A stretch of DNA of 64,000 nucleotides from Candidatus Moraniibacteriota bacterium (GTDB lineage Bacteria; Patescibacteriota; Minisyncoccia; Moranbacterales; GCA-2747515): NCBI GenBank assembly GCA_016699795.1, contig CP065011.1:1011449-1075448 (forward strand), written 5' to 3'. The stretch's first letter is position 1, and every line of letters starts with the position of its first letter. Positions 17,096-49,131 of this stretch are shown here, piece by piece. The notes under the pieces are model-generated. The model saw nothing but the letters and a program-made list of their open reading frames with translations, was not told where the DNA came from and ran no database searches. Position numbers and translations under genes: made by a program.

Positions 17096-17118
17096 TCCTA
17101 TAATTAAGCATCAAATCT

Positions 17119-17838
17119 ATGAAACAACTTTCTACTCGAACCATCGCTATTATTACCCTTATAGCCATTGCCTTTCTAGCATTAGGAGTTTTTGTGATGC
17201 AAAAAGTTTACAACACACCTCTTCCTGTTGTAGAGAATGAAGTTGAGCAAAAAGAAAATCCGAAAACAAATGATGAAACCTTCATTACTGACGTTGATAT
17301 GAATGTAGAGAATTGGCAAACAAAAGAAACGGAATTTTTTACTATTAAATTTCCGAAGGAGTGGTATTTCTTTCAAACAAACTATGATACGATGGGATAT
17401 AACTCATACGTTATTACAAACAATCCAAATTTCGATATTAGTAAATATCCAGACATTAGTATTGGAGTGGGGAGGATCTATCCTTTGGATCTGATGAATG
17501 AAACAGAAATTGTAATTTCATCAAACTATCTTGGGGATGCTACTGCTAATTCAGGAACGTCTTTGGATTACATAGAATATATGATCAATAGTATGAGGGA
17601 ATACGTAGGTTTTACCGTTGCATGTCAATATATGTCGAGTATGGACAGTATCCCTCTTGCTACGTATTGCTCATTTACAGATGAGGATAATAAGCAAAGA
17701 GTTGGAACGTATTATGCTTCTTATCCAATACGTACGTTTGGATTCTCTGCTCGTGTGAAAAAGGAAAATAATATGGTTTTAGAAAAAATATTGGAGGGTA
17801 TTGTACAAAATTATTCTGTAACTGTTTCATATCGGTAG
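17119..17838 (+). CDS. MKQLSTR-family signal-anchored protein, copy 2
   Basis: N-terminal MKQLSTRTIAIITLIAIAFLALGVFVMQKVYNTPLPVVENEVEQKENPKTNDETF. The central block VDMNVENWQTKETEFFTIKFPKEWY..NNPNFDISKYPDI is shared with ORF 27474; the C-terminus is unique. Confidence 0.75.
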   Translation: MKQLSTRTIAIITLIAIAFLALGVFVMQKVYNTPLPVVENEVEQKENPKTNDETFITDVDMNVENWQTKETEFFTIKFPKEWYFFQTNYDTMGYNSYVITNNPNFDISKYPDISIGVGRIYPLDLMNETEIVISSNYLGDATANSGTSLDYIEYMINSMREYVGFTVACQYMSSMDSIPLATYCSFTDEDNKQRVGTYYASYPIRTFGFSARVKKENNMVLEKILEGIVQNYSVTVSYR

Positions 17839-17962
17839 GAAATTATTGGTTTTTCCGCTTCTTAATCACCTCATCTAAACATGATGGGGTTATCTATGAA
17901 ACGGTAATATCCGTTTCTCAAAAAACATTTGATCTTTAACAATTCGAAAGAGGACTTTCTCC

Positions 17963-18685
17963 ATGAAACTGTTAGCGCAAGGCGTATTGAGTGTATTCTT
18001 AGTATTGTCCAGTCTGGGTGCAGTCGCCGGAACGAATGAGTGCTACGGCTACACGTCTACAACGAATCATTTCCCATGCCTTTATCCAACTGGCAACTGC
18101 ACCTGGTGGGCAGCATATATGCGCCCCGATATTGCAGAAGTGATCACCGGAAGCGGATGGGATGGTGGAAATTGGATCAACAAGCTCAATGGAATGATTC
18201 CTGTTGGTTCCGTTCCTGGAGTTGGGGCAATCGTGGAGTTCGATGGGCACGTTGCCTTCGTAACGAACGTGTTGGATGGGGGTGCATTTCGTGTTTCGGA
18301 AATGGATGCTACTGGAAAATTGGGTAATGGTTTGCAATACGCCACCTACTACCCAGGTAGTAGTAATACCTATCATCGCAATACCGATCGCGGATCTGAT
18401 GTTAAAGGGAGTTGGATCCTCAAAGGTTTCATTTACGCTGAAGATCCCGCAATTATTCCTGGCAATCAATTCTCGATCCGTCATGTGGGAAATTATGGTT
18501 GGTATCCAGCATACAGCTCGTGCATTCATGCCGAGTCATGGTATGGATTTAATAATGATAAAAAGATCGTAAGGATCTATCGCTATTCCAACCACAACCC
18601 GTGTCAATGGATCTACGAAACACTTTATCCGAAAGAGGTCAGTTACAATGCACTCTTCGGAAATGCTAATGCGTGCTATCAATAA
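17963..18685 (+). CDS. secreted CHAP-domain peptidoglycan hydrolase (amidase/endopeptidase), copy 2
   Basis: Signal peptide. Catalytic Cys in GNCTWWAAYMRP and His in DGHVAFVTNV. About 65% aa identity to ORF 28304-29002. Confidence 0.8.
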   Translation: MKLLAQGVLSVFLVLSSLGAVAGTNECYGYTSTTNHFPCLYPTGNCTWWAAYMRPDIAEVITGSGWDGGNWINKLNGMIPVGSVPGVGAIVEFDGHVAFVTNVLDGGAFRVSEMDATGKLGNGLQYATYYPGSSNTYHRNTDRGSDVKGSWILKGFIYAEDPAIIPGNQFSIRHVGNYGWYPAYSSCIHAESWYGFNNDKKIVRIYRYSNHNPCQWIYETLYPKEVSYNALFGNANACYQ

Positions 18686-18717
18686 GACGCAAAACGACCA
18701 TTTGAGAGGTGCTAATC

Positions 18718-20022
18718 GTGAAAACGAAACGATTCTTTGAAGTAGTAATTACTTCCATTTTCCTCTTTGCTTTCGCAAGCGTTTACGCTTCCGATTGCGG
18801 AGAATTCGCAACTATCTCTGTTCCAAGTTCGGGCGGAGGATATGTGAGTGGAGGCGATGGCTACATCCCACCCCAAAATCCAACTCCCACAGACCCTGTC
18901 AATCTTACCCAAGATACTGACATTCTTGGTGCTGACGGCAATGAACTCTATGCTGGACGTGACTCAATCCTTTCTGGAATGAAAGTAAAAGTCCGCGTTG
19001 CAGTGCAAGCTGAAGGAGGGGATGCAGGAAACTGGAAAACGAGAAACGATGCCGACACTATAGACATCGCTTACTCCGTAAGTTCCAATGATGGTCCTTG
19101 GACTCAGTTTGATACTGGGTACATTACCATTTCTAAACTTGATGAGGGACAAACTATCACGGAAACGAAGGAATACACTATTCCAAATGGCATCTCTTCG
19201 ATTGCATTTCGCACAGAAACCGATTATCGAGATGAAGTCGAAGAATATGATGAAGGAGATAATACCAGTCGCGTAGAACGATTTGAGATTTCAAATCTCA
19301 AACCTGACTACAGCATCACTGATGTTTTCTTCTCTGATCCCAGTACAGGAGCCATATACCGAAATGGTGCAATACTCTTAGAAGATAGAGAGTGGTATCC
19401 CTATTGTGAGATAATGAGCACAGGAGAAATCAATGCTCCTATCAACGTAGAAGTTTCTCACCGTATGGATGGAACAGAAAGAGATACTGATACGCTAGGA
19501 ATAGATGATATTTCTTTGGGACAAACATATCGTGAAGTCGTCTGGAGCAAATGGAAACTGGGAAATACAGGAACACGTACCTATACGTGCTGTGTAGATT
19601 CCAAAGGTTGGCTTCCAGAACTCAATGAGAGCAATAATTGCAAGAGTGCACTCTTTACGATAGTTCCATGGAAACCTAGTATCACCATCACTGATCTCTG
19701 GGTAGACTATGATGGAAAAGTAGTTCGTAATGGTGGAACAGGGAGCAAAGGGAAACGTTATCATCCTAATGTTACCTTCACCAATACGGGAAACAAAACA
19801 ATGTCATGTGGTGCTGAAGCGAAGTACTACATCAATTCTAACTCCTATCGTGATCGTGATACTGTTGGTATTCTGGGAGTAGGAGGTATCGGGCACGAGA
19901 GAGTTGATAACGACAATATCAAACTTGGAGATGGAGGATGGAGATCCTATCGTGTTACTCTCCAATCTAGCTGTGGAGAGTTTCCTACAGTGGAAAGAAC
20001 GATGAGTTTCTATCTTCGATGA
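18718..20022 (+). CDS. secreted CARDB-like repeat protein, copy 2
   Basis: GTG start at 18718 after a GAGAGG RBS. Signal peptide KTKRFFEVVITSIFLFAFASVYA|SD. Motifs EYDEGDNTSRVERFEI and LPELNESNNC (E.NE.NN of CARDB). Near-identical to 29035-30339 and to the 3' 1.15 kb of 1318-3237. Confidence 0.6.
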   Translation: MKTKRFFEVVITSIFLFAFASVYASDCGEFATISVPSSGGGYVSGGDGYIPPQNPTPTDPVNLTQDTDILGADGNELYAGRDSILSGMKVKVRVAVQAEGGDAGNWKTRNDADTIDIAYSVSSNDGPWTQFDTGYITISKLDEGQTITETKEYTIPNGISSIAFRTETDYRDEVEEYDEGDNTSRVERFEISNLKPDYSITDVFFSDPSTGAIYRNGAILLEDREWYPYCEIMSTGEINAPINVEVSHRMDGTERDTDTLGIDDISLGQTYREVVWSKWKLGNTGTRTYTCCVDSKGWLPELNESNNCKSALFTIVPWKPSITITDLWVDYDGKVVRNGGTGSKGKRYHPNVTFTNTGNKTMSCGAEAKYYINSNSYRDRDTVGILGVGGIGHERVDNDNIKLGDGGWRSYRVTLQSSCGEFPTVERTMSFYLR

Positions 20023-27316: not shown

Positions 27317-27473
27317 ATCTTTCTTTGATTATCTCATTTGGATGTAATGGTTAGTTGATAGGCTACCGACGATGACCCATGGACTCAGTTTGACACTGGA
27401 TATATGACTATCGAAAAACTTGACATAAAGCCATATTTTAGGTATATTTTTTGTACATTATTTTAAATACATT

Positions 27474-28193
27474 ATGAAACAGCTTTCCACTCGAACTATA
27501 GCCATTATTTCCCTTATCGCCATTGCCATTTTGGCATTAGGAGTCTTTGCAATACAAAGAGCTTACAATACCCCACTTCCTGTTGTGGAGAATAAAGTTG
27601 AACAAAAAGAGAATCCGAAAACAAATGATAAAATCTTCATTGCCGATGTTGATATGAATATTGAAAATTGGCAAACGAAAGAAACGAAATTCTTTACGAT
27701 TAAATTTCCAAAAGAGTGGTATTGGTTGGAATCTGATTTTGAAAAGATAGGATATCATTCACAAGCAATCACCAATAATCCAAATTTTGATATAAACAAG
27801 TATCCTGACATTGGAATGTTTACTGGATATGATTATCCAATGATACTTAAAGAAAATAGTGAGGTTATTATAACGTTTGGAGGTTTTCCCACATCCAATT
27901 CTGGCACACCAAAGGATAGCTCTGATTATATTAAGAAATCCGTTTTAGATAAAAATTCTTCCGCTCAGTGCAAGGAAATTCAGATTACTAATAACAATGA
28001 TAGAAATGTAACTCTTTTTATTACCTGTTCTTTTATGGATATATATGGGTACAGCATAAAGAAGTATAGCGCTATTAATAACGAAATTTCTATTACAATA
28101 ACCATTGGAATGACAAAAGATACGGTTGTAAAACAGGAAATACTTGATACGATAGCTAAGAATATTATTTTAAAGAATAATTTTCCAGAGTAG
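27474..28193 (+). CDS. MKQLSTR-family signal-anchored protein, copy 3b
   Basis: N-terminal MKQLSTRTIAIISLIAIAILALGVFAIQRAYNTPLPVVENKVEQKENPKTNDKIF; shares a central block with ORF 17119. Confidence 0.75.
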   Translation: MKQLSTRTIAIISLIAIAILALGVFAIQRAYNTPLPVVENKVEQKENPKTNDKIFIADVDMNIENWQTKETKFFTIKFPKEWYWLESDFEKIGYHSQAITNNPNFDINKYPDIGMFTGYDYPMILKENSEVIITFGGFPTSNSGTPKDSSDYIKKSVLDKNSSAQCKEIQITNNNDRNVTLFITCSFMDIYGYSIKKYSAINNEISITITIGMTKDTVVKQEILDTIAKNIILKNNFPE

Positions 28194-28303
28194 ACCTTTT
28201 CTCGATTACCTTATTTGAATATGATTGGGTAATCTATGAAGCGGTAATATCCGTTTCTCAAAAAGCAATTGTTTTTTGACAATTTGAAAGAGGAGTTTTT
28301 TCC

Positions 28304-29002
28304 ATGAACATGCTAATGAAGACTGTGCTATACACACTTCTTTTCTTATCTAATATGGGAGTATATGCCGGAACAGATGAATGCTATGGATATAAATCTA
28401 CAACGAGTCATTTTGCGTGTGGTGAATATGGCAATTGTGTATGGTGGGCTGCATATATGCGTCCGGATATTGCTAGGGTTATAACGGGAAGTGGTTGGAA
28501 TGGTGGAGATTGGTACGCTAAACTTAAGGGAACGATTCCAGTTGGTTCCGTTCCGGAAGTTGGTGCAATTGTGGAATTTGAAGGCCACGTTGCGTTTGTT
28601 AAGGATATACTGGACGAAGGAGCATTCGCTGTATCAGAAATGGATTATTATGGGCAGTTTGGTTCGGGCGTACAATATGCCACATACACTCCCAATGGTG
28701 ATGGGACCTATCAACGAAATAATGAATCAAAGAAATGGACCCTCAACGGTTTCATTTATGCTGAAGATCCGGCAGTTATCCCTGGCAACACTTTTACGGT
28801 ACGTCGGGTAGGTAACTATGCTTGGCATCCTGCAGACAGTTCGTGTATCAATGCAAAAAATTGGTACGGACTCAATAGCGATCGAAAAATCGTACGTACG
28901 TACGACGATAGCCAAGTATGCCAATGGATCTACGAAACACTCTACCCACAAGAGGTAAGCTATAATGCACTCTTCGGAAATGCTAATGCGTGCTATCAAT
29001 AA
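28304..29002 (+). CDS. secreted CHAP-domain peptidoglycan hydrolase, copy 3
   Basis: Catalytic Cys in GNCVWWAAYMRP and His in EGHVAFVKDI. Signal peptide. AGAGGAG RBS. Confidence 0.8.
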   Translation: MNMLMKTVLYTLLFLSNMGVYAGTDECYGYKSTTSHFACGEYGNCVWWAAYMRPDIARVITGSGWNGGDWYAKLKGTIPVGSVPEVGAIVEFEGHVAFVKDILDEGAFAVSEMDYYGQFGSGVQYATYTPNGDGTYQRNNESKKWTLNGFIYAEDPAVIPGNTFTVRRVGNYAWHPADSSCINAKNWYGLNSDRKIVRTYDDSQVCQWIYETLYPQEVSYNALFGNANACYQ

Positions 29003-29034
29003 GACGCAAAACGACCATTTGAGAGGTGCTAATC

Positions 29035-30339
29035 GTGAAAACGAAACGATTCTTTGAAGTAGTAATTACTTCCATTTTCCTCTTTGCTTTCGCAAGCGTT
29101 TACGCTTCCGATTGCGGAGAATTCGCAACTATCTCTGTTCCAAGTTCGGGCGGAGGATATGTGAGTGGAGGCGATGGCTACATCCCACCCCAAAATCCAA
29201 CTCCCACAGACCCTGTCAATCTTACCCAAGATACTGACATTCTTGGTGCTGACGGCAATGAACTCTATGCTGGACGTGACTCAATCCTTTCTGGAATGAA
29301 AGTAAAAGTCCGCGTTGCAGTGCAAGCTGAAGGAGGGGATGCAGGAAACTGGAAAACGAGAAACGATGCCGACACTATAGACATCGCTTACTCCGTAAGT
29401 TCCAATGATGGTCCTTGGACTCAGTTTGATACTGGGTACATTACCATTTCTAAACTTGATGAAGGAGTTACTATTACAGAAACGAAAGAATACACTATTC
29501 CAAATGGCATCTCTTCGATTGCATTTCGCACAGAAACCGATTATCGAGATGAAGTCGAAGAATATGATGAAGGAGATAATACCAGTCGCGTAGAACGATT
29601 TGAGATTTCAAATCTCAAACCTGACTACAGCATCACTGATGTTTTCTTCTCTGATCCCAGTACAGGAGCCATATACCGAAATGGTGCAATACTCTTAGAA
29701 GATAGAGAGTGGTATCCCTATTGTGAGATAATGAGCACAGGAGAAATCAATGCTCCTATCAACGTAGAAGTTTCTCACCGTATGGATGGAACAGAAAGAG
29801 ATACTGATACGCTAGGAATAGATGATATTTCTTTGGGACAAACATATCGTGAAGTCGTCTGGAGCAAATGGAAACTGGGAAATACAGGAACACGTACCTA
29901 TACGTGCTGTGTAGATTCCAAAGGTTGGCTTCCAGAACTCAATGAGAGCAATAATTGCAAGAGTGCACTCTTTACGATAGTTCCATGGAAACCTAGTATC
30001 ACCATCACTGATCTCTGGGTAGACTATGATGGAAAAGTAGTTCGTAATGGTGGAACAGGGAGCAAAGGGAAACGTTATCATCCTAATGTTACCTTCACCA
30101 ATACGGGAAACAAAACAATGTCGTGTGGTGCTGAAGCAAAGTACTACATTAATTCTAACTCCTATAGAGATAGAGACGGGATCGATCCTCTTTCCGTGAA
30201 TCAATCCGGACATGAGAGAGTCGAGAACGACAATATCAAACTTGGAGATGGAGGATGGAGATCATATCGTGTTACTATCCAATCTAGCTGTGGAGAGTTT
30301 CCTACAGTGGAAAGGACGATGAGTTTTTATCTTCGATGA
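29035..30339 (+). CDS. secreted CARDB-like repeat protein, copy 3
   Basis: Identical to copy 2 except for small patches (EGVTITE versus EGQTITE; a C-terminal 35-aa patch). Confidence 0.6.
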   Translation: MKTKRFFEVVITSIFLFAFASVYASDCGEFATISVPSSGGGYVSGGDGYIPPQNPTPTDPVNLTQDTDILGADGNELYAGRDSILSGMKVKVRVAVQAEGGDAGNWKTRNDADTIDIAYSVSSNDGPWTQFDTGYITISKLDEGVTITETKEYTIPNGISSIAFRTETDYRDEVEEYDEGDNTSRVERFEISNLKPDYSITDVFFSDPSTGAIYRNGAILLEDREWYPYCEIMSTGEINAPINVEVSHRMDGTERDTDTLGIDDISLGQTYREVVWSKWKLGNTGTRTYTCCVDSKGWLPELNESNNCKSALFTIVPWKPSITITDLWVDYDGKVVRNGGTGSKGKRYHPNVTFTNTGNKTMSCGAEAKYYINSNSYRDRDGIDPLSVNQSGHERVENDNIKLGDGGWRSYRVTIQSSCGEFPTVERTMSFYLR

Positions 30340-39199: not shown

Positions 39200-40891
39200 T
39201 TAATCAACTTCTTGATCAGGATCTTCTTCGATGATACCTTCTTGTTTTGAAGTTTTTTCTTCTTTATTGATAATTCGAGGATAAAGCATTACATTTTCTT
39301 TCAAAACAGGATCGGAAAATAAAATACGCTGATTAGTGCCTGAAAATTCTAAGCAATCTTTTGAAACTTCTTTTTCACAATCAAGAGTAGAAAAGAAAAT
39401 ATTCAAAGAATCCATTATTTTCAAAGAAGGATTTTCATTGTCTACCCCTATTCCCTTACTTAGAATACCTTCAAATAAAGATTGATGTAAACCCTGAAAA
39501 AAACTTCCATTTGGAGATGCTACATCAATATTTTTAAAGTAAAAAAAGGAATTTCTTAAAACATTACCATTTTTTGGATAAAAGTTTTTTAACGTCATCG
39601 CATTATTTTTTGAATAAGCTTGGACATTGACAAAGAAAATATCACGGAGACGGACATCTTCTTTCTTAGTTTCTTTACTGCGAAGTCGCATATCATCTTC
39701 AGAAGAAGAAAGGTCCATAAAAATTGCATTTTCAAAGACAGTATCCATTTTTATGTTTTGAAAAAGAAAATGTCTAAGAGAGCCCCCTATGCCGGAAGGA
39801 AGAGATGTCGCTATGCCGTTTACTGTTTCATAAATATGAATATCTTTAGTAACAATTCGATTCATTCCTCCAGACATAGCCCTATCGATATGTATTGCAT
39901 TTCTTGATTGTAGAATGTCTACATTTTGAATACGAATATTTTGTAATGGGTTTTCATCCATAGCTCGTCCTTCAGCATCTAAGCCGGACTGGAAAACAAT
40001 ACCATCTCCTTTTTCAGATTGAATTTTCCCCCCAGAATAGAGAATATTTGAAGAAGAATCTAGGACAACAGCATCACCATCAAGAGAATTTACTTTGATA
40101 ATAAGATCTTGAAATAACATTTTGTTACTAAAAAGTGCGCGGATAGAATTTCGAGGTGAATTTTCAAGCGTAACACCTTCTACGCTTATATTCGAACAAA
40201 AAGAAAAACCTATCATATCAGGTCTAAATGCCATCGTATCTTTTAAACTGTATTGTGTACGATTCTCAACTTTTTCCCTTTCTTCACTTTCTTGATAGAG
40301 AAATTCGAACCAATATTTTTCACTCTCAGCATATTTTAGCCAAGCTTTTTCATTTCCTCGGATACTCCCCTTTCCAGAAATTTTAACATCTTCACATTCA
40401 AATCCATACAATAAGGGTTGAGACATATTCGTCCTTATACCTTCAAAACGATAGGGCACGCTTGTTGGATAAGAAAGAATATTTTCATCAAAAAGAATTT
40501 CCGAACCCTCCTCAATAGAAAAATCTATATGATTTTTTAGTAAAAGTGACTGTATAATCCAAGATCCCCTATCAATTACTATCCTTCCTCCCCCACCCAA
40601 AGAACACTCATTGATTGCATTTTGTACACTTGCTGTTATTTTTTCAGGAGAGTCTGTTTGTTTCACATTCTGTGAAATTCGATAACATTCTCGATTTGGT
40701 ATATTATGTTCTACAGGAGAATTTAAAACGATATTCTGTAATCGCGAAAAAGTTTTCTCATCAAAAGGCATCATTGTGGCATCACTTCCATAGCCTAATC
40801 GAGAATAATAATCATAAAGATAATAAGCCCCCCCACAAAGAAAAAGAAAGAATATGCTCAAAACTATAACGTCACTTCTTGTCAATTTCAT
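39200..40891 (-). CDS. membrane-anchored secreted right-handed beta-helix (pectate-lyase/GH28-like) protein
   Basis: N-terminal TM, then VQNAINECSLGGGGRIVIDRGSWIIQSLLLKNHIDFSIEEGSEILF, the classic start of pectate-lyase-superfamily/GH28 beta-helix domains. Confidence 0.45.
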   Translation of the reverse strand: MKLTRSDVIVLSIFFLFLCGGAYYLYDYYSRLGYGSDATMMPFDEKTFSRLQNIVLNSPVEHNIPNRECYRISQNVKQTDSPEKITASVQNAINECSLGGGGRIVIDRGSWIIQSLLLKNHIDFSIEEGSEILFDENILSYPTSVPYRFEGIRTNMSQPLLYGFECEDVKISGKGSIRGNEKAWLKYAESEKYWFEFLYQESEEREKVENRTQYSLKDTMAFRPDMIGFSFCSNISVEGVTLENSPRNSIRALFSNKMLFQDLIIKVNSLDGDAVVLDSSSNILYSGGKIQSEKGDGIVFQSGLDAEGRAMDENPLQNIRIQNVDILQSRNAIHIDRAMSGGMNRIVTKDIHIYETVNGIATSLPSGIGGSLRHFLFQNIKMDTVFENAIFMDLSSSEDDMRLRSKETKKEDVRLRDIFFVNVQAYSKNNAMTLKNFYPKNGNVLRNSFFYFKNIDVASPNGSFFQGLHQSLFEGILSKGIGVDNENPSLKIMDSLNIFFSTLDCEKEVSKDCLEFSGTNQRILFSDPVLKENVMLYPRIINKEEKTSKQEGIIEEDPDQEVD

Positions 40892-40906: not shown

Positions 40907-43072
40907 TTGATTCTTATGAGAGCATACAAAAAATTTTCCTACAATGCAATGAAAAAATTAAAAAATCCTCTTTTTTGGGTTTATATTGCTTTAATTGCGT
41001 ATTTCTCTTTTTCATTGCCCAATCTTACTCATTATACAACAGCCGATGAACATTTTTGGCTTCCTAATATTGGAGAGGAGCGTGTTCTTGAATATTGGAG
41101 AGCAATCGGTTCTGGGGATTGGGAGAAAACTCGAATTAATGATAAGCCAGGGATTACCCTTGCTTATATCTCGGGTATAGCTATACCGTTCACGCAACAT
41201 CTTTATGATAAACAACGTTTTTCTGATCCTGATAACGTTGTTTTTCAATACGATCCCCAAATAACAAAAATAATGCATTTTTCTTATCGATTCCCTCTTG
41301 TCCTTTTTACCGGATTTTTCATGCTTTATATTTTTCATATACTCAAAAAAATAACAAAAAATAAAAAGATTGCTGCTATTTCAGTTATATTTTTTCTCTC
41401 TTCCCCAGTACTTGTAGGCATATCTCACATTGTAAATCCCGATTCACTTTTTTGGATTTTTGGAACAGCGACACTTCTTACTTATATATACACACTTCAA
41501 AATAAATCTTCATCACGATACATTTGGCTTACAGGATTATTTTTCGGTTTATCCCTTGCAAGTAAATATGTCAGTATTATCTTTATTCCCTTTCTTTTGT
41601 TACTTATGGGACTTTGGTATATTTTTCACTTTGAAAATGAATTCAATGATAATGCGAAGCGAAAAAATTTCTCCAAACACCTAACAAAAAATATTCGTAA
41701 TTTTATAGCTATCATCGTAGGAAGTTTTTTTCTTTTTGCTCTTATGATGCCAGCTGCCTTAGTAGATCCTGTAATATTTTATGAAAGTACTATTGGTTTT
41801 CCTGGTATGCCCCCAGTTTTCGTTCTTATAGCTCTTTTTTGTTTCATCATCCTTTTAGATGCTTATTTTTTGAAATCAAAAATAGCTTTTTCTATTTTTT
41901 CTTTTTTATCAAAACATTCAGTATTCCTTGAACGTATTATTTATGGAATTCTCATAATTTCTTCCCTTTTTGTATTTTTCAACTGGATTTCCAAAAATAG
42001 TATTATTGATCTTTCTGGAATTCCATTCTATGCGAAAACAAAAGCATCATTTACAACAGATAATCCCTATTGGGTCCGTTATGTTATGGAATTTGTCCCT
42101 CTCGTTTTTGCACTTACGCCATTAACATTTTTTCTTCTTTTGCTCTATTGGATACAAGGATTTTTTCAACAAGTAAAGTATCGATTTTTTGGCTTTTCTC
42201 TTTCTCTTTTCTTTTTTATATTCTTTATTGCTGTAGTCGAGCAAGGACTTCTTGTAACCGTACGTTATAACATAATTCTTTTTCCCCTAGCTTGCATCTT
42301 GGCTTCGATGGCACTTATCGAAAATACTTCCTCTCTAAAAATAAAAGAAAGAATTCCAAGAAAATATTTCTTAATTGCATTATTAACACTTATTCTTACA
42401 GCTTATATTCTCAATGCGTTTGTTGGTTATCACAGTTCCCAAGAAGCTTCTTTAAAATTTCAATTTGAATATATTATTGGAATGTATAGAAGTATTATTT
42501 TCCCCCTTATTATTATTCTTTTTTCAGGATCTCTTTATTTTCTCTTTCGTTTTATAGATCGATCCTCATTTTTTCAAAAAATCAAATTTTTCTTTTTTTC
42601 CTTTCCTGTCATCGCATTTGGAATAGTAATCATCGCAAGTATTTCCCTTTTCAGCGCCTACCCTCATTTTTTTCTTTATACCAATAGTTATCTTCCTACT
42701 CGTTATATTCTCAATCATCCCTGGGGTTATGGAGGATATGAAGCAGCTCAGTATCTCAATGAACTTCCCGATGCAAAAAATATCACTCTCTGGGCTAATG
42801 CTCATGGGGTTTGCGAATTCTTCGTAGGAAAATGCATACGAAAACAAAAACTTGATATAGAAAAATATCCTATAGATTATTTATTTTTTGCTCATATGGG
42901 ATCTTTGCAGGCTAAGTTTGAAACTGAGTCAGAAACAGTTTGGGCCTATTACCCTGATAATCGAAAGATAAATTTCGTAAAATTAGAAAAGAATGATTAT
43001 CAAGCATCTTTAGAAAAAGCCATGCTAAAAAAATATATTGAAAATTTTACCCCTAAACTAGATCAGGAATAA
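40907..43072 (+). CDS. GT-C family (PMT_2/ArnT-like, GT39/83-type) membrane glycosyltransferase, paralog 1
   Basis: First extracytoplasmic loop TTADEHFWLP..WEKTRINDKPG (DE motif) after TM1; more than 12 TM helices. Confidence 0.6.
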   Translation: MILMRAYKKFSYNAMKKLKNPLFWVYIALIAYFSFSLPNLTHYTTADEHFWLPNIGEERVLEYWRAIGSGDWEKTRINDKPGITLAYISGIAIPFTQHLYDKQRFSDPDNVVFQYDPQITKIMHFSYRFPLVLFTGFFMLYIFHILKKITKNKKIAAISVIFFLSSPVLVGISHIVNPDSLFWIFGTATLLTYIYTLQNKSSSRYIWLTGLFFGLSLASKYVSIIFIPFLLLLMGLWYIFHFENEFNDNAKRKNFSKHLTKNIRNFIAIIVGSFFLFALMMPAALVDPVIFYESTIGFPGMPPVFVLIALFCFIILLDAYFLKSKIAFSIFSFLSKHSVFLERIIYGILIISSLFVFFNWISKNSIIDLSGIPFYAKTKASFTTDNPYWVRYVMEFVPLVFALTPLTFFLLLLYWIQGFFQQVKYRFFGFSLSLFFFIFFIAVVEQGLLVTVRYNIILFPLACILASMALIENTSSLKIKERIPRKYFLIALLTLILTAYILNAFVGYHSSQEASLKFQFEYIIGMYRSIIFPLIIILFSGSLYFLFRFIDRSSFFQKIKFFFFSFPVIAFGIVIIASISLFSAYPHFFLYTNSYLPTRYILNHPWGYGGYEAAQYLNELPDAKNITLWANAHGVCEFFVGKCIRKQKLDIEKYPIDYLFFAHMGSLQAKFETESETVWAYYPDNRKINFVKLEKNDYQASLEKAMLKKYIENFTPKLDQE

Positions 43073-43088
43073 AAAAACAAAAAATAAT

Positions 43089-44993
43089 ATGACAGCATTC
43101 TTTAATTTTATTAAAAAATATTATCTTCCTTTCGTTTTGTGTATCTTTTTTGGAATATATCTTTTTTTGGGAATTTCTACTCTAGGAAATTTCCAGACAG
43201 CCGATGAAGATCTTTGGTTTGCTGATCCTGTCAAAGGAAGGATTCACACCTATTGGGAAGCTATGCGTACTAAAGATTGGGAAAGAACTCGAATTAACGA
43301 TAAACCTGGTGTTTCTTCAGCTATTTTTTCTGGTATTTTTGGTCTTCGTAATGATAGGGAGCCAGAAAAAAAAATAATAAAAGATGGGAATATGATTGAT
43401 CAATTTGATCCTCAGTATTCTGCAAATGCTGTATTTTATTATCGACTTGGAATTCTTCTTACTAATGGTATTCTTGTATTTTTTGTCGCTTGGTTCCTTT
43501 GGGCATCTACAGCAAGCACTCTCGTAGCACTTTTTTCAAGTATCTTTTTATTTCTTTCTCCTATACTTTTAGGAATTTCTCAAATTGTCAATCCTGATGC
43601 TATGCTTTGGTCTTTTGGAATTGCAACAGCGACGGGGTACTTCGCCTTTCTCGTAAGAGGAAAATGGTATTATTTACTTTTGGCAGGTATTTTTTTTGGG
43701 TTCGTTCTTCTTTCTAAATATACAGGATCTTTTCTTTTCTTCATTCTTTATGGAATGACATTCGCTTCATTTTACTATATAGGTTCCTATTTAGAAGAAG
43801 AAAAAACCTACAGAAATTTTGTGCTGTGGCGACTTATAGGTTTTATTTTATTTTGTACAGTTTCTGTAGGTATATTCATTCTTTTTATGCCTGCCGCAAA
43901 AATTGAACCGAGATACCTTTATGAAGGAACTTTTAATTTTAAAGGTGCTTCTAATATGCAATCCATTCTCACTCTTATGGCTTGGATATACGGAATTTTT
44001 CTCTTAGAAGCAATAGTCATTCGTTCAAAAATAACCTTTTTTCTTTTCAAAAAAATTCAATACATAAAAGGACTCCCTTCGTTTCTTATAGGAATCATTC
44101 TCCTTTTGGGGGTTGCTTTTAGTATTTTTAATTGGAATTTTAATAATTATTTTCAACTTCAAACAGCGCCCTTTGATGCCGGAAAGGAAGCTGTATATAC
44201 GTCAATTACCGATACAGGAAATAGACTCGCTCTCCAAATAAAACCTCTCATTTTCACACTTCCTCCTATTATTATTTTTCTCTTCTTTTTTTCTTTTTTT
44301 ATACCTCTTTCCTTCTGTAAAAATCTTTTGAAAACACAGAAGCAAGAAAATGCTATCCGTTTGGGAATATCTCTATTCGGAATGCTTATTATCTTCTTCT
44401 TTTATGCAGCATTACAACAAACCGTACTCGTCCATGTTCGCTATTCCATACTTCTCTATCCGATTATTTCAGTTATCGCGGGAATATCTCTTGCCTTACT
44501 TATTTCGATCATCTCTCAAAAAAGTAATGTATTAGCCATGGCTTTGGTAGTTCTTGCTCTAGGAACATCATTTTATTCACTCATTTCCATACGCCCTTTT
44601 TATTTCAATTACACGAGCGATCTTCTTCCTAAAGATCAAGATGTTGTAGGAGCTTGGGGATACGGTGGCTACCAAGCAGCTATGTATATAAACGACCTCC
44701 ATTTATTTCCAGAATACGTACTCGCTTGGTCTGATTATGATGGCTTTTGTCCATTTTTTAAAGGTGAATGCATTGAGGGTAGTCAAGTAAAATGGCATAA
44801 AAAAGGAACCTATGCTGGTATTGATTATTTTGTAGTAACAAGAAGAGGTCTTCTTAAAAACGAAAGTACTTGGAATAAAATACAAGAGCAAAATATTGTT
44901 GAATCTACGCCAATTTGGTCGCTTTATATCGGTGACAGGCCAGGAAATTTTATTGAAATCTATAAAGCGAAAAACTTCACTCCCAATGAATAA
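43089..44993 (+). CDS. GT-C family (PMT_2/ArnT-like) membrane glycosyltransferase, paralog 2
   Basis: QTADEDLWFADP..WERTRINDKPG, homologous to the preceding gene; polytopic. Confidence 0.6.
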   Translation: MTAFFNFIKKYYLPFVLCIFFGIYLFLGISTLGNFQTADEDLWFADPVKGRIHTYWEAMRTKDWERTRINDKPGVSSAIFSGIFGLRNDREPEKKIIKDGNMIDQFDPQYSANAVFYYRLGILLTNGILVFFVAWFLWASTASTLVALFSSIFLFLSPILLGISQIVNPDAMLWSFGIATATGYFAFLVRGKWYYLLLAGIFFGFVLLSKYTGSFLFFILYGMTFASFYYIGSYLEEEKTYRNFVLWRLIGFILFCTVSVGIFILFMPAAKIEPRYLYEGTFNFKGASNMQSILTLMAWIYGIFLLEAIVIRSKITFFLFKKIQYIKGLPSFLIGIILLLGVAFSIFNWNFNNYFQLQTAPFDAGKEAVYTSITDTGNRLALQIKPLIFTLPPIIIFLFFFSFFIPLSFCKNLLKTQKQENAIRLGISLFGMLIIFFFYAALQQTVLVHVRYSILLYPIISVIAGISLALLISIISQKSNVLAMALVVLALGTSFYSLISIRPFYFNYTSDLLPKDQDVVGAWGYGGYQAAMYINDLHLFPEYVLAWSDYDGFCPFFKGECIEGSQVKWHKKGTYAGIDYFVVTRRGLLKNESTWNKIQEQNIVESTPIWSLYIGDRPGNFIEIYKAKNFTPNE

Positions 44994-45570: not shown

Positions 45571-46470
45571 TTATTTTGTATATTTCTTCTGAAAATGATA
45601 ACTTGTCACCAAAAGAGCCGAAGCAACAAAAATTGAGGAATACGTTCCTGCAAAAACACCTATAAAAAGAGCAAGAGCAAATGATTGTATCGACGTTCCT
45701 CCTAGAAGAATAATAGCAAAGAGAACAACCAAAACAGTCATTGAAGTATTTATCGATCGAGCAACCGTTTCATTTATAGATCGATTTATAATATTTTCGA
45801 AACTTTCTTTCATACCATGTCGGAGAAGATTTTCTCGAATCCTATCATAAACGACTATAGTATCGTTGACACTATATCCAAGTATAGTAAGGATAGCTGC
45901 TATAAAAGGAATTCCTACTTCAATAGCATAAAACTCTCCCAAAATAGCGAAAACTCCTATAGTAATGATAATATCGTGCATCAGAGCAATCATAGCACCT
46001 ACTCCGTATTGCCACGATGAAAGAGGTCGAGAAACTTTTCGAAATGCGATAGCAATAAAGATAGCAACAAGGAAAATAGCTACGATCGTTGCTTCAATGG
46101 CCTTTCTTGTTAATTCCTTGGACACTGAGGAACCAAAAAAATCAGTTCGGATTATTTTATTCTCTGCATCCATCTCAGTAAGTTTTTCCCGAACTTTCTC
46201 ATTTATGGTTTCATCACCAGCTAAATATCTTACTATAAAAACATTATCATTTCCCGGCTGAACCAAAACACTCTCAGCTACAGAGGAAACATTGTTGTAA
46301 ATATCCTCCTTGGAAATTTCTTTTGAAAAATGAATTTCCATAAGAGTTCCCCCTTGGAAATCAATACCAAGACGTAGTCCCCAGAAAGAAATAGCAGACA
46401 CACTAAGAATAACACCGAGAAGGGAGATGGCGTAAAATATTTTTCGATACCGAATACTATTGAGAGTCAT
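45571..46470 (-). CDS. secF: protein-export membrane protein SecF
   Basis: Six TM helices and SecD/SecF family motifs (..LGYSVNDTIVVYDRIREN..); downstream of secD. Confidence 0.9.
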   Translation of the reverse strand: MTLNSIRYRKIFYAISLLGVILSVSAISFWGLRLGIDFQGGTLMEIHFSKEISKEDIYNNVSSVAESVLVQPGNDNVFIVRYLAGDETINEKVREKLTEMDAENKIIRTDFFGSSVSKELTRKAIEATIVAIFLVAIFIAIAFRKVSRPLSSWQYGVGAMIALMHDIIITIGVFAILGEFYAIEVGIPFIAAILTILGYSVNDTIVVYDRIRENLLRHGMKESFENIINRSINETVARSINTSMTVLVVLFAIILLGGTSIQSFALALFIGVFAGTYSSIFVASALLVTSYHFQKKYTK

Positions 46471-46481
46471 ATACGTTATTA

Positions 46482-48191
46482 TTATTTCTTGTTTTTGGAT
46501 CGTTTAATTCTTGCAATCAACCAGAGATGTCGATCTAAAAATTGCATAGGAAGTGCTTTGACCATAGTCTGCACAATACCTATCGCAGTAAACATAGAAA
46601 ATGAAACTCCTAAAAACAAGATAAGAGCAAATCCCTGAACAAAACCCGTTCCCATCCAAATAAGAATAACACACGTGAGTAGTGTTGAAAGATTACCGTC
46701 GCGAATACTTGGCCAAGCTCTTCGAAAACCTTCACGAATAGCACTTTCTATATATTTACCATTTCGTAGCTCTTCTTTTATACGTTCGAAAATAAGAACA
46801 TTCGCATCGACAGCCATACCAATAGAAAGAATAAATCCAGCAATACCAGAAAGAGTCAATGTAATAGGCCAATCCCATCCAGGAAAAGAAGAAAGTTTGA
46901 AAATAGCAATAAGCATTGTTGTGTACATTATTAAAGCAACGCCTGCAATTACACCGAAAAATCTATAATAAACAACCATATAAATAATAACAGCAAGAAC
47001 ACCAAAAAATCCTGCTTTTAAGCTTTTATTAAGATCTTCCTGACCAAGAGAGGCCTCGATACTTTGTTGACCTACTAATTGCAAAGGAACGGGCAAGGCA
47101 CCTTCATTAAGGCGTGATTTTAAACTCTGAGCTTCTTCTAATGTATATTGACCTGTTATTTCAGCGACACCATCAGGAATTATGCTTTGCACAGTAGGTG
47201 CTGTTACTTTTTCCTTATCGATAAAAATAGCTAATGTTTTACCTAAGTTTCGTTCGGTAATTTCTTTAAAAAGTTTAGATCCTTCTTCGTCAAAATGAAG
47301 TACAATTCGAGGATCTCCCATCGCATACTGATTTCCGAAATCAATAGAGGCACTTTCTAAATATCTTCCTGTAAGACCCGTTTCTTTATATTGCAATTCC
47401 GGAACCATATTTTTTTGCATTTTAGCAAAGAGAATATGACGAGAACGAACTTCCCTTTCTTCTCCTTCACCTCTACGTTCCTCTATTTTTATAATATGGT
47501 ATCCGAAGCTAGATTCTACAATATTTGGATGAACAATTCCAACAGGATTATTTTCATCAAAAAGAATGATGTCAAATTCAGGAACAAAAGCTCCTTTTTT
47601 TTGAAAATCTAAATTTCCTCCGTCTTCTTTCGATCCTGGATCCTGACTTAACTCACTTGCGAGCTGTGCAAAGTCTTCTCCAGCAAGAGCCCTTTCAAGA
47701 CCTTTTTTGGCATTTTCTAAAGACATTCCATTCACCATAGTCAATGTTTGTACCAAATCAGGATCATCGTCAGCTCTTTCCTCTCGAAACTCTAATGTGG
47801 GAGTTTCTTTAATAAGTTTTTTAGCATCTTCAATATCTTTTACTCCGGGAAGTTCTACGATAATACGACGCTCTTCTCCGGATCGAGACGTTTGGATCAA
47901 TGGCTCACCAACACCAAAAGCATTAACTCTTCGCTCGATAACCGCTTGAGCAGAATTTATAGCATCTTCTCTTTGATCTTCAGGAACGGAATTCACATCA
48001 GCGACATATTCCAAATGAACACCTCCTTGAAGATCAAGACCCAAAGAGACCTTAAGTTGATTTACTTTCTGATATACAGGATCAATAAATACTACTATTT
48101 TTGGATAAGAAATAACTCCAGAAATAAGAGCTAAAAGAACAATTCCCGCAACCTGAAATCTTATTTTTCTTCCGTATCTCATAAATATCAA
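46482..48191 (-). CDS. secD: protein-export membrane protein SecD with an inserted parvulin-type PPIase domain
   Basis: SecD N-terminal TM and P1 region (..ETPTLEFRE..) plus C-terminal TM bundle. Residues about 150-240 (FAQLASELSQDPGSKEDGGNLDFQKKGAFVPEFD..SFGYHIIKIEERR) match the PpiC/parvulin rotamase signature. Confidence 0.85.
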   Translation of the reverse strand: MIFMRYGRKIRFQVAGIVLLALISGVISYPKIVVFIDPVYQKVNQLKVSLGLDLQGGVHLEYVADVNSVPEDQREDAINSAQAVIERRVNAFGVGEPLIQTSRSGEERRIIVELPGVKDIEDAKKLIKETPTLEFREERADDDPDLVQTLTMVNGMSLENAKKGLERALAGEDFAQLASELSQDPGSKEDGGNLDFQKKGAFVPEFDIILFDENNPVGIVHPNIVESSFGYHIIKIEERRGEGEEREVRSRHILFAKMQKNMVPELQYKETGLTGRYLESASIDFGNQYAMGDPRIVLHFDEEGSKLFKEITERNLGKTLAIFIDKEKVTAPTVQSIIPDGVAEITGQYTLEEAQSLKSRLNEGALPVPLQLVGQQSIEASLGQEDLNKSLKAGFFGVLAVIIYMVVYYRFFGVIAGVALIMYTTMLIAIFKLSSFPGWDWPITLTLSGIAGFILSIGMAVDANVLIFERIKEELRNGKYIESAIREGFRRAWPSIRDGNLSTLLTCVILIWMGTGFVQGFALILFLGVSFSMFTAIGIVQTMVKALPMQFLDRHLWLIARIKRSKNKK

Positions 48192-48326: not shown

Positions 48327-48761
48327 ATGAAAAAATCAATATTGTTTTCAGTTCTTGTTACTTTTTCAGTTTTTATTCTTTCTGGCTGTACTGCAGAAAA
48401 AAATAAAGAAGAAATAACTCAAATGGAAACAAAAATAAATCAAGAAGAAGTGATAATTTCAAATCAAGAGCCCTCTTCTCTTGAACCTACTCCGCAAGTA
48501 TACACTCTCGAACAAGTAGCTGAGCATGCGACTCAAGAAAATTGTTGGATAATTGTTGACGACACTGTTGTTGATGCAACTTCTTTTTTTGGAAAACATC
48601 CAGGTGGTGACGACAAACTTTTGAAAGGTTGTGGGAAAGATGCGAGTGAAATGTTTGCTCAAATTAAAAAACACACCCCAGAAGGTTATGAACAATTGAA
48701 AAAATTAAAAATCGGAATATTTCTTCCCGAAAGTTCTTCTCAGCTCTCCCCTATTGAATAA
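48327..48761 (+). CDS. cytochrome b5-like heme-binding lipoprotein
   Basis: Lipobox ILSGC|T; cyt-b5 motif ..WIIVDDTVVDATSFFGKHPGGDD. Confidence 0.7.
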   Translation: MKKSILFSVLVTFSVFILSGCTAEKNKEEITQMETKINQEEVIISNQEPSSLEPTPQVYTLEQVAEHATQENCWIIVDDTVVDATSFFGKHPGGDDKLLKGCGKDASEMFAQIKKHTPEGYEQLKKLKIGIFLPESSSQLSPIE

Positions 48762-48855: not shown

Positions 48856-49131
48856 TTATTCTATAACAGCTACGATATCTTCAGTTTTCACAATAAGATA
48901 TTCTTTTCCTTCAAATTCAACCTCTGTTCCGCTATAACGATTATAGATAACTTTTTGATTCTTCTTTACTGCTATCTTTTTACTTTCACCAATTTCAATA
49001 ACTTTTCCTTGTTGAGGTTTTTCCTTTGAAGCTGATTCAGGAAGATAGATACCAGAACCAGTTTTTTTCTCCTGTTCTTCAGGAAGAATAAGAACATTTT
49101 CTCCCAAGGGTCGTACAGTGACTTTTTTCAT
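48856..49131 (-). CDS. groES: co-chaperonin GroES (no groEL adjacent)
   Basis: MKKVTVRPLGENVLILPEEQEKKTGSGIYLPESA..GKVIEIGE.., 91 aa. Confidence 0.9.
   Translation of the reverse strand: MKKVTVRPLGENVLILPEEQEKKTGSGIYLPESASKEKPQQGKVIEIGESKKIAVKKNQKVIYNRYSGTEVEFEGKEYLIVKTEDIVAVIE

Follow-up and report, generated by a model that had tools for sequence, protein, structure and literature searches.

Export through SecYEG is assisted by SecDF, in which the P1 head binds unfolded preprotein and proton flow drives an F/I swing that pulls chains out of the channel. Sec substrates are received by factors that contain parvulin domains: monoderm bacteria have PrsA for this, diderm bacteria PpiD and SurA. 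The hand-over of exported proteins from the Sec channel to their folding helpers is still unsettled; for E. coli, the docking of SurA and PpiD on the translocon and the SecDF head has been approached by cross-linking, low-resolution electron microscopy and AlphaFold models. SurA binds the holo-translocon, and in AlphaFold models its parvulin domains lie on the P1 head of SecDF (PMC9987972). PpiD/YfgM has been located at SecYEG (PMC9643414). The Patescibacteria are thought to be without an outer membrane (PMC12102498). Here we describe the secD gene in a 64,000-nucleotide stretch of DNA (the window) from a Patescibacterium, Candidatus Moraniibacteriota bacterium (contig CP065011.1, positions 1,011,449 to 1,075,448). 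Its product carries a parvulin domain that is inserted in the extracytoplasmic P1 domain and is circularly permuted. Judging from sequence and predicted structure, we put at roughly 70% the probability that this protein is a genuine SecD with a complete, circularly permuted parvulin at the junction of the P1 base and head, likely acting as an active, translocon-tethered foldase.

The SecD subunit and its inserted domain

The genes and domains are arranged as follows (positions are those of the window, and all amino acid (aa) numbering follows the 569-aa open reading frame, ORF).

46482..48191, minus strand: secD ORF, 569 aa from TTG
45571..46470, minus strand: secF, 299 aa; TIGR00966, 275.8 bits; starts 11 nt downstream of secD
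47778..47957, minus strand: SecD_1st (Pfam), N-terminal part of the P1 base, aa 79-138
47385..47771, minus strand: entire inserted region, aa 141-269; replaces residues 121-156 of Thermus thermophilus SecDF
47424..47762, minus strand: functional parvulin domain, aa 144-256
47088..47399, minus strand: SecDF_P1_head (Pfam), P1 head subdomain, aa 265-368
46560..47069, minus strand: SecD_SecF_C (Pfam), SecD transmembrane domain, aa 375-544

The ORF encodes a genuine SecD, which belongs to SecDF, the export motor driven by protons. It scores 373.6 bits against TIGR01129, the curated equivalog model for SecD (cut-off 244.4), over aa 50-544, and it possesses the P1 base and head as well as the bundle of six transmembrane segments. 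Its transmembrane motif AVD462AN aligns with the 'AVDGN' of T. thermophilus, which contains the conserved Asp of the proton pathway, and V461, D462, A463 and N464 are invariant across an alignment of 41 homologues. The adjacent secF encodes the partner subunit. An AlphaFold2 model of the full-length protein (41 homologues) had a mean predicted local distance difference test score (pLDDT) of 79.9, with values of 82-93 in the insert, and in a Foldseek search it matched the SecDF structures 5xan and 3aqp with E values of 1e-21 to 1e-19. The ORF call begins at the TTG at 48191; a database protein of 566 aa that is 100% identical to the window SecD (P0001) has its first codon three triplets further on, the ATG 48180..48182, and the true secD start is therefore probably this ATG (48182).

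To locate the insert, the protein was aligned to T. thermophilus SecDF (3aqp). Query residues 45-140 correspond to residues 30-120 of the Thermus protein and query residues 270-547 to residues 157-425, so that 129 aa (141-269) stand where Thermus SecDF has 36. The net gain of ~93 aa agrees with the insert of about 90 aa that a preliminary description of this DNA, made from the letters alone, had placed in P1. The P1 base portion closes with the strand ETPTLEFRE (aa 129-137), directly before the insert. Pfam matches to PF13616 Rotamase_3 (aa 163-239, E 1.6e-16, 61.3 bits, cut-off 22.5) and PF00639 Rotamase (aa 160-237, E 4.1e-13, 50.6 bits, cut-off 21.7) sit between SecD_1st and SecDF_P1_head and are far beyond chance. 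With both families above their gathering cut-offs, the assignment of the insert to the parvulin type in the preliminary description is borne out, and the structure prediction that it proposed as a check gives an independent parvulin-like fold: an AlphaFold2 model of aa 136-268 alone reached a pLDDT of 94.9 and a predicted template modelling score (pTM) of 0.86, and its four helices and four strands make up the parvulin complement of a four-stranded antiparallel sheet and four helices. In Foldseek searches this domain model superposed on the parvulin fragment of Bacillus anthracis PrsA (6xd8) with a root-mean-square deviation of 1.5 A over 80 columns at 40% identity (template modelling score 0.75 on the target), and it also matched a periplasmic peptidyl-prolyl isomerase from Bacteroides (8hm3, E 2.9e-8). 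Among solved structures, PrsA (6vj6, E 3.6e-12) and SurA come closest to it in sequence. A Pfam scan of the 569-aa protein found nothing besides the SecD and Rotamase domains, and thus no N/C (SurA_N-like) chaperone domain; for this reason the insert is not a member of the PrsA/SurA/PpiD family, although it probably works like one.

The insert recurs at the same site across many Patescibacteria lineages. Rotamase and SecD Pfam domains occur together in all 120 of the best homologues among the matches listed (55-100% identity); where these carry a name, it is Moranbacteria, Moraniibacteriota or Patescibacteria, and the only functional name given in their records is 'protein translocase subunit SecD'. 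In a scan that used one genome per GTDB species, at least 73 of the 80 loci listed encode a SecD with an insert at this site, which consists of a single parvulin unit in 68 and of two units in 5, and the records of these fusion loci name Moran-, Falkow-, Kerfeld-, Buchanan-, Kuenen-, Komeili-, Veblen-, Magasanik- and Uhrbacteria, among others. When a library of 1.84 billion representatives (50% identity) was searched with aa 120-300, 40 SecD fusions stood among the best 150 matches. The SecD-parvulin fusion is therefore the rule rather than a rarity in this clade, and the word 'uncommon' in the preliminary description is misleading on this point.

These counts also bear on the reliability of the gene model. 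Because the source is a metagenome-assembled genome (MAG), one may think of a chimeric assembly, or of a fused gene call that joined secD with a neighbouring parvulin gene. This explanation has practically no chance of being correct, since the insert keeps the reading frame within P1 and is flanked at either end by SecD sequence, and since the same architecture and site are seen in all 120 homologues listed, which come from several independent data sources, and in the 73 or more species-representative genomes; recurrence at one site in independent data sets rules an artefact out. Fusion records labelled Bdellovibrionales, Gammaproteobacteria, Lysobacteraceae or Bathyarchaeia were not accepted as occurrences outside the Patescibacteria, and titles from Proteobacteria or Archaea on fusion loci are probably mislabels. 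As a separate observation, two loci (L020 and L039) and many that are titled 'uncultured Bdellovibrionales/Gammaproteobacteria' are Patescibacteria-type SecD-parvulin contigs filed under unrelated taxa. Public MAG records thus seem to suffer from misbinning or from coarse automatic labelling; the 30% GC content of the 'Lysobacteraceae' fusion contig indicates the same.

Permuted order of the parvulin fold

The canonical parvulin order, beta1-alpha1-alpha2-alpha3-beta2-alpha4-beta3-beta4, is not kept in the SecD insert. Instead, the elements follow one another as alpha1 (144-169), alpha2 (174-181), alpha3 (185-188), beta2 (193-198), alpha4 (204-210), a short beta3, beta4 (230-240) and beta1 (247-256), so that beta1 comes after beta4, and in both AlphaFold2 models alpha1 is the next element after the strand of the SecD base (133-138), with no strand in between. 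To our knowledge, beta1 is N-terminal in all other parvulins. The Pfam matches begin at profile position 21 of 97 (PF00639) and 42 of 116 (PF13616), and the N-terminal beta1, with its 'xHILv' sequence and first catalytic His, is missing ahead of the Rotamase match. It is found at the other end of the domain, where the chain runs through FGYHIIKIEERR and a short GEGEE loop into EVRSRHILFAK (aa 247-257).

47454..47471, minus strand: hairpin loop GEGEER, aa 241-246; links beta4 to the relocated beta1
47424..47453, minus strand: relocated beta1 strand EVRSRHILFA, aa 247-256; bears a catalytic His

The canonical parvulin fold has beta1 and beta4 side by side in antiparallel orientation, and both chain ends meet there; a hairpin running from beta4 through a loop into beta1 is therefore the shape expected of a permutation. 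The preliminary description had the fold right and overlooked the permutation. Its coordinates, 47472..47744, do translate to aa 150-240 as quoted (LTMVNG...FGYHIIKIEERR), and they omit both the start of alpha1 and strand 247-256, leaving the last strand with its catalytic His outside the interval.

The permutation was assessed by moving the strand to the front of the sequence in silico. The relocated beta1 then aligned with the N-terminal 'EIKASHIL' of PrsA, and end-to-end alignments with PrsA and PpiC were obtained. When the re-permuted sequence was compared with PDB entries by phmmer, its residues 7-99 aligned to 4-91 of 6xd8 (E 6.4e-11, against 1.3e-9 in the native order) and its residues 5-97 to 3-90 of 2m08 (E 7.2e-11, against 8.6e-9); human Par14 entries were matched for the first time, and alignments with stand-alone parvulins ran from end to end. 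A canonical-order hidden Markov model (HMM) was made from 150 parvulin domains that do not come from SecD. Against this model the re-permuted order outscored the native order in all 69 family members, by a mean of +8.0 bits, and the start of the alignment shifted from position 22 to position 2, whereas a shuffled-strand control gained only +2.4 bits. A Pfam scan of the re-permuted constructs did little for the permuted reading: the gain was only +1.6 bits, and the profile start fell short of beta1. We consider the PDB alignments and the canonical-order HMM with its shuffle control decisive among these sequence comparisons, and conclude that the parvulin domain of SecD is circularly permuted, with beta1 moved to the end.

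A different identity for strand 247-256, that of a native SecD hinge strand, was rejected. Thermus SecDF has nothing that aligns to aa 141-269, and H252 and I253 are invariant, as are the remaining catalytic residues of the parvulin. A Pin1-type, phospho-specific parvulin was likewise ruled out, the best matches being of the PrsA, PpiC and SurA type; in Pin1 the beta1-alpha1 loop carries a basic cluster, and this loop is the point at which the chain is cut in the SecD insert. As to the origin of the permuted order, the native sequence aligns without a break through the end of the first parvulin of SurA into the 'EVHARHILL' beta1 of the second. This is the pattern that would be expected if a permuted unit had been cut from a tandem array, that is, if the permutation arose by duplication.

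A full-text literature search, incomplete in coverage, found no description of a SecD-parvulin fusion and none of a circularly permuted parvulin. The fusion thus appears to be undescribed; since precomputed Pfam annotation displays the domain matches, the architecture may already have caught the attention of others. As far as we have found, this is the first circularly permuted parvulin, and it should be useful for work on fold evolution and for protein engineering.

The active site, its variants and the proposed role

The catalytic network of Pin1, C113/H59/H157/T152, is taken here as the counterpart of D184/H252/H232/S227 in SecD.

47640..47642, minus strand: D184 codon; equivalent of Pin1 C113 (Asp in PrsA)
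47511..47513, minus strand: S227 codon; equivalent of Pin1 T152
47496..47498, minus strand: H232 codon; second catalytic His, within FGYHII
47436..47438, minus strand: H252 codon; first catalytic His, on the relocated beta1

The tetrad (D184, S/T227, H232 and H252) is invariant across the 41-sequence alignment. Among the 68 single-unit species, Asp is present at position 184 in 66, with one further Cys; Ser or Thr occupies position 227 in all 68, His is found at 232 in 68 of 68, and His at 252 in 67. Strong purifying selection acts on all four residues, so that an active foldase is the most likely reading of the domain. Since D462 is invariant and the tetrad is kept, the SecD motor and the parvulin active site both look functional.

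Variants of the insert show how far this conservation extends. In ten proteins of 655-706 aa (L066, L067, L069, L070 and L077; P0142, P0177, P0188, P0202 and P0214), this same site holds two parvulin units, the second unit being placed between the beta4 and relocated beta1 strands. In these proteins the first unit (A) is degenerate and has no His on beta4, the His residues of the middle strand ('ASHIL') and of the second unit ('FGYH') are always kept, and the final strand is mostly without His. On the simplest reading of this His pattern, the second unit (B) would be canonical and active and would lie within the beta4-beta1 hairpin of unit A, itself permuted and degenerate. The loop of this hairpin is an insertion hot spot; in P0022, P0113 and P0199 it holds long acidic or low-complexity insertions of ~15-50 aa.

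Three points weigh against an active foldase that works on translocating chains. First, the parvulin domains of SurA (P1) and PpiD are catalytically inactive chaperone modules, and having the fold therefore does not prove activity. Second, both catalytic His residues are lost in P0193, an 877-aa single-chain SecDF on a 290-kb contig, which reads 'DQGFFIVKK' and 'KIKPLSFGK' at these sites and shows that the parvulin domain can persist without catalytic residues; together with the degenerate unit A, this indicates that catalysis is not required in every lineage. Third, the full-length model has a pTM of 0.50, which limits what it can say on the orientation of the active site with respect to the P1 cleft. 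As regards a replacement of free parvulins, a scan of the 64-kb window found no further parvulin there.

Some of these points would suit an insert that is a non-catalytic chaperone or substrate-binding module, enlarging the binding surface of the P1 head and making isomerisation irrelevant. Catalytically inactive parvulin domains are known from other chaperones, degenerate units exist within the family itself (P0193 without both His residues, unit A without the His on beta4), and docking on the P1 head has been predicted for the parvulin domains of SurA (PMC9987972). We nevertheless regard this module as unlikely. The full tetrad is kept in 66-68 of the 68 single-unit species, down to ~33% identity, a pattern that is difficult to account for unless the active site is selected, and the double variants always keep both His residues in one unit. 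Still more improbable is a mainly mechanical or regulatory role, in which the insert, instead of acting on substrates, would make the P1 hinge between base and head stiffer or gate it, or would dock SecDF to a further machine of the envelope, for example pili, the S-layer or YidC. The insert is placed exactly at the base-to-head connection and its 26-residue alpha1 (aa 144-169) resembles a stalk; against this, a spacer would not need conserved active-site residues, the length of the hinge connector varies widely among SecD proteins, and there is no specific support for any partner.

We therefore favour a catalytic domain and propose the following model, built on the predicted fold and the position of the insert. 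After the P1 base, the chain enters the parvulin at alpha1, reaches the FGYHII strand, passes the GEGEE hairpin, supplies the EVRSRHILF strand and continues into the P1 head. The parvulin is thereby fastened to the arm with which SecD catches and pulls its substrates where they leave SecYEG on the outer side. Given this tethering, the domain would act on emerging unfolded chains, through prolyl cis/trans isomerisation or by holding them transiently. The result would be a foldase built into the motor, much as if PrsA had been welded to SecD, and such a built-in parvulin may replace free parvulins in small genomes. Conservation of the catalytic residues and the location of the domain make a coupling of export and isomerisation a reasonable inference.

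A bolder version of this model is possible, though we hold it only tentatively and think it more doubtful than not. In it, the P1 head, swung by proton flow, would carry an active permuted parvulin whose site, beside the new chain ends at the beta1/alpha1 cut, faces the substrate cleft, and each stroke would present the chain to the isomerase. The domain would replace all free extracytoplasmic parvulins of these minimal genomes and would be the first natural permutation of a parvulin; as a Rosetta-stone fusion, it would indicate that the contact between a SurA-type parvulin and the SecDF head is ancient and functional.

The covalent fusion of an apparently active parvulin, widely conserved as it is, gives independent evolutionary support to the coupling of translocon and foldase, and it offers a simple system, made of one polypeptide, in which this coupling can be studied. 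It also shows how the genome-reduced Patescibacteria may economise on envelope proteostasis.

The rest of the window and comparison with known systems

Further features of the window were recorded. Two PMT-family glycosyltransferases (40907-43072 and 43089-44993, plus strand) lie adjacent to each other just downstream of the secDF pair, and a GH28-like glycosyl hydrolase (39200-40891, minus strand) adjoins them. On the other side of secD, between it and groES (48856-49131, minus strand), lies a gene (48327-48761, plus strand) whose product combines a cytochrome b5-like domain with a lipoprotein-like signal sequence. groEL does not follow groES, and when two GroEL sequence motifs were sought in the ORFs of the window, no ORF carried them. 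A three-gene module occurs twice on the plus strand, ~10 kb apart (17104-20019 and 27429-30336). The two CARDB-domain proteins of 438 aa that it encodes (18706-20019 and 29023-30336) share 97% identity and have their differences grouped around aa 386-402, and the module also holds a CHAP-domain protein (17933-18682) and an unknown protein of 244 aa; the GC content of both copies is 0.41-0.44, against a window average of ~0.33. An Rfam scan of the whole 64-kb window gave no family, tRNA included, at the gathering threshold.

Compared with canonical SecDF (T. thermophilus 3aqp and 5yhf; Deinococcus 5xan), the window protein has the same P1 base and head, the same core of six transmembrane segments with its Asp, and an adjacent SecF. 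It differs in the connection between base and head, where a helical connector of ~36 aa is replaced by the 129-aa region that contains the parvulin.

The closest match of the insert in both sequence and structure is PrsA of Bacillus and other Firmicutes (6vj6, 6xd8, 4wo7). The two share the non-phospho-specific parvulin type with its Asp and His-His-Ser/Thr residues, a tether at the outer face of the membrane, the lack (presumed for the Patescibacteria) of an outer membrane and Sec-exported clients, which for the insert would follow from its location. However, PrsA is a separate, dimer-forming lipoprotein whose canonical-order parvulin sits inside an N/C chaperone domain, whereas the SecD insert has no such domain, is anchored by SecD itself and is circularly permuted.

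PpiD/YfgM and SurA of the E. coli Sec holo-translocon (PMC9643414, PMC9987972) are likewise parvulin chaperones at the periplasmic exit of SecYEG, and the SecD-parvulin fusion is the covalent equivalent of the contact proposed between the SurA parvulins and the SecDF P1 head. In contrast to the fusion, the contacts of PpiD and SurA are non-covalent and transient and occur in diderms, the parvulins of PpiD and SurA P1 are inactive, and SurA delivers outer-membrane proteins to BAM, which is presumably absent from Patescibacteria. The tandem P1-P2 parvulins of SurA provide the nearest parallel to the permuted order, as the native insert aligns across the end of one parvulin and the beta1 of the next. 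Each unit of SurA is nonetheless in canonical order, whereas the SecD insert is a single unit that uses the downstream strand.

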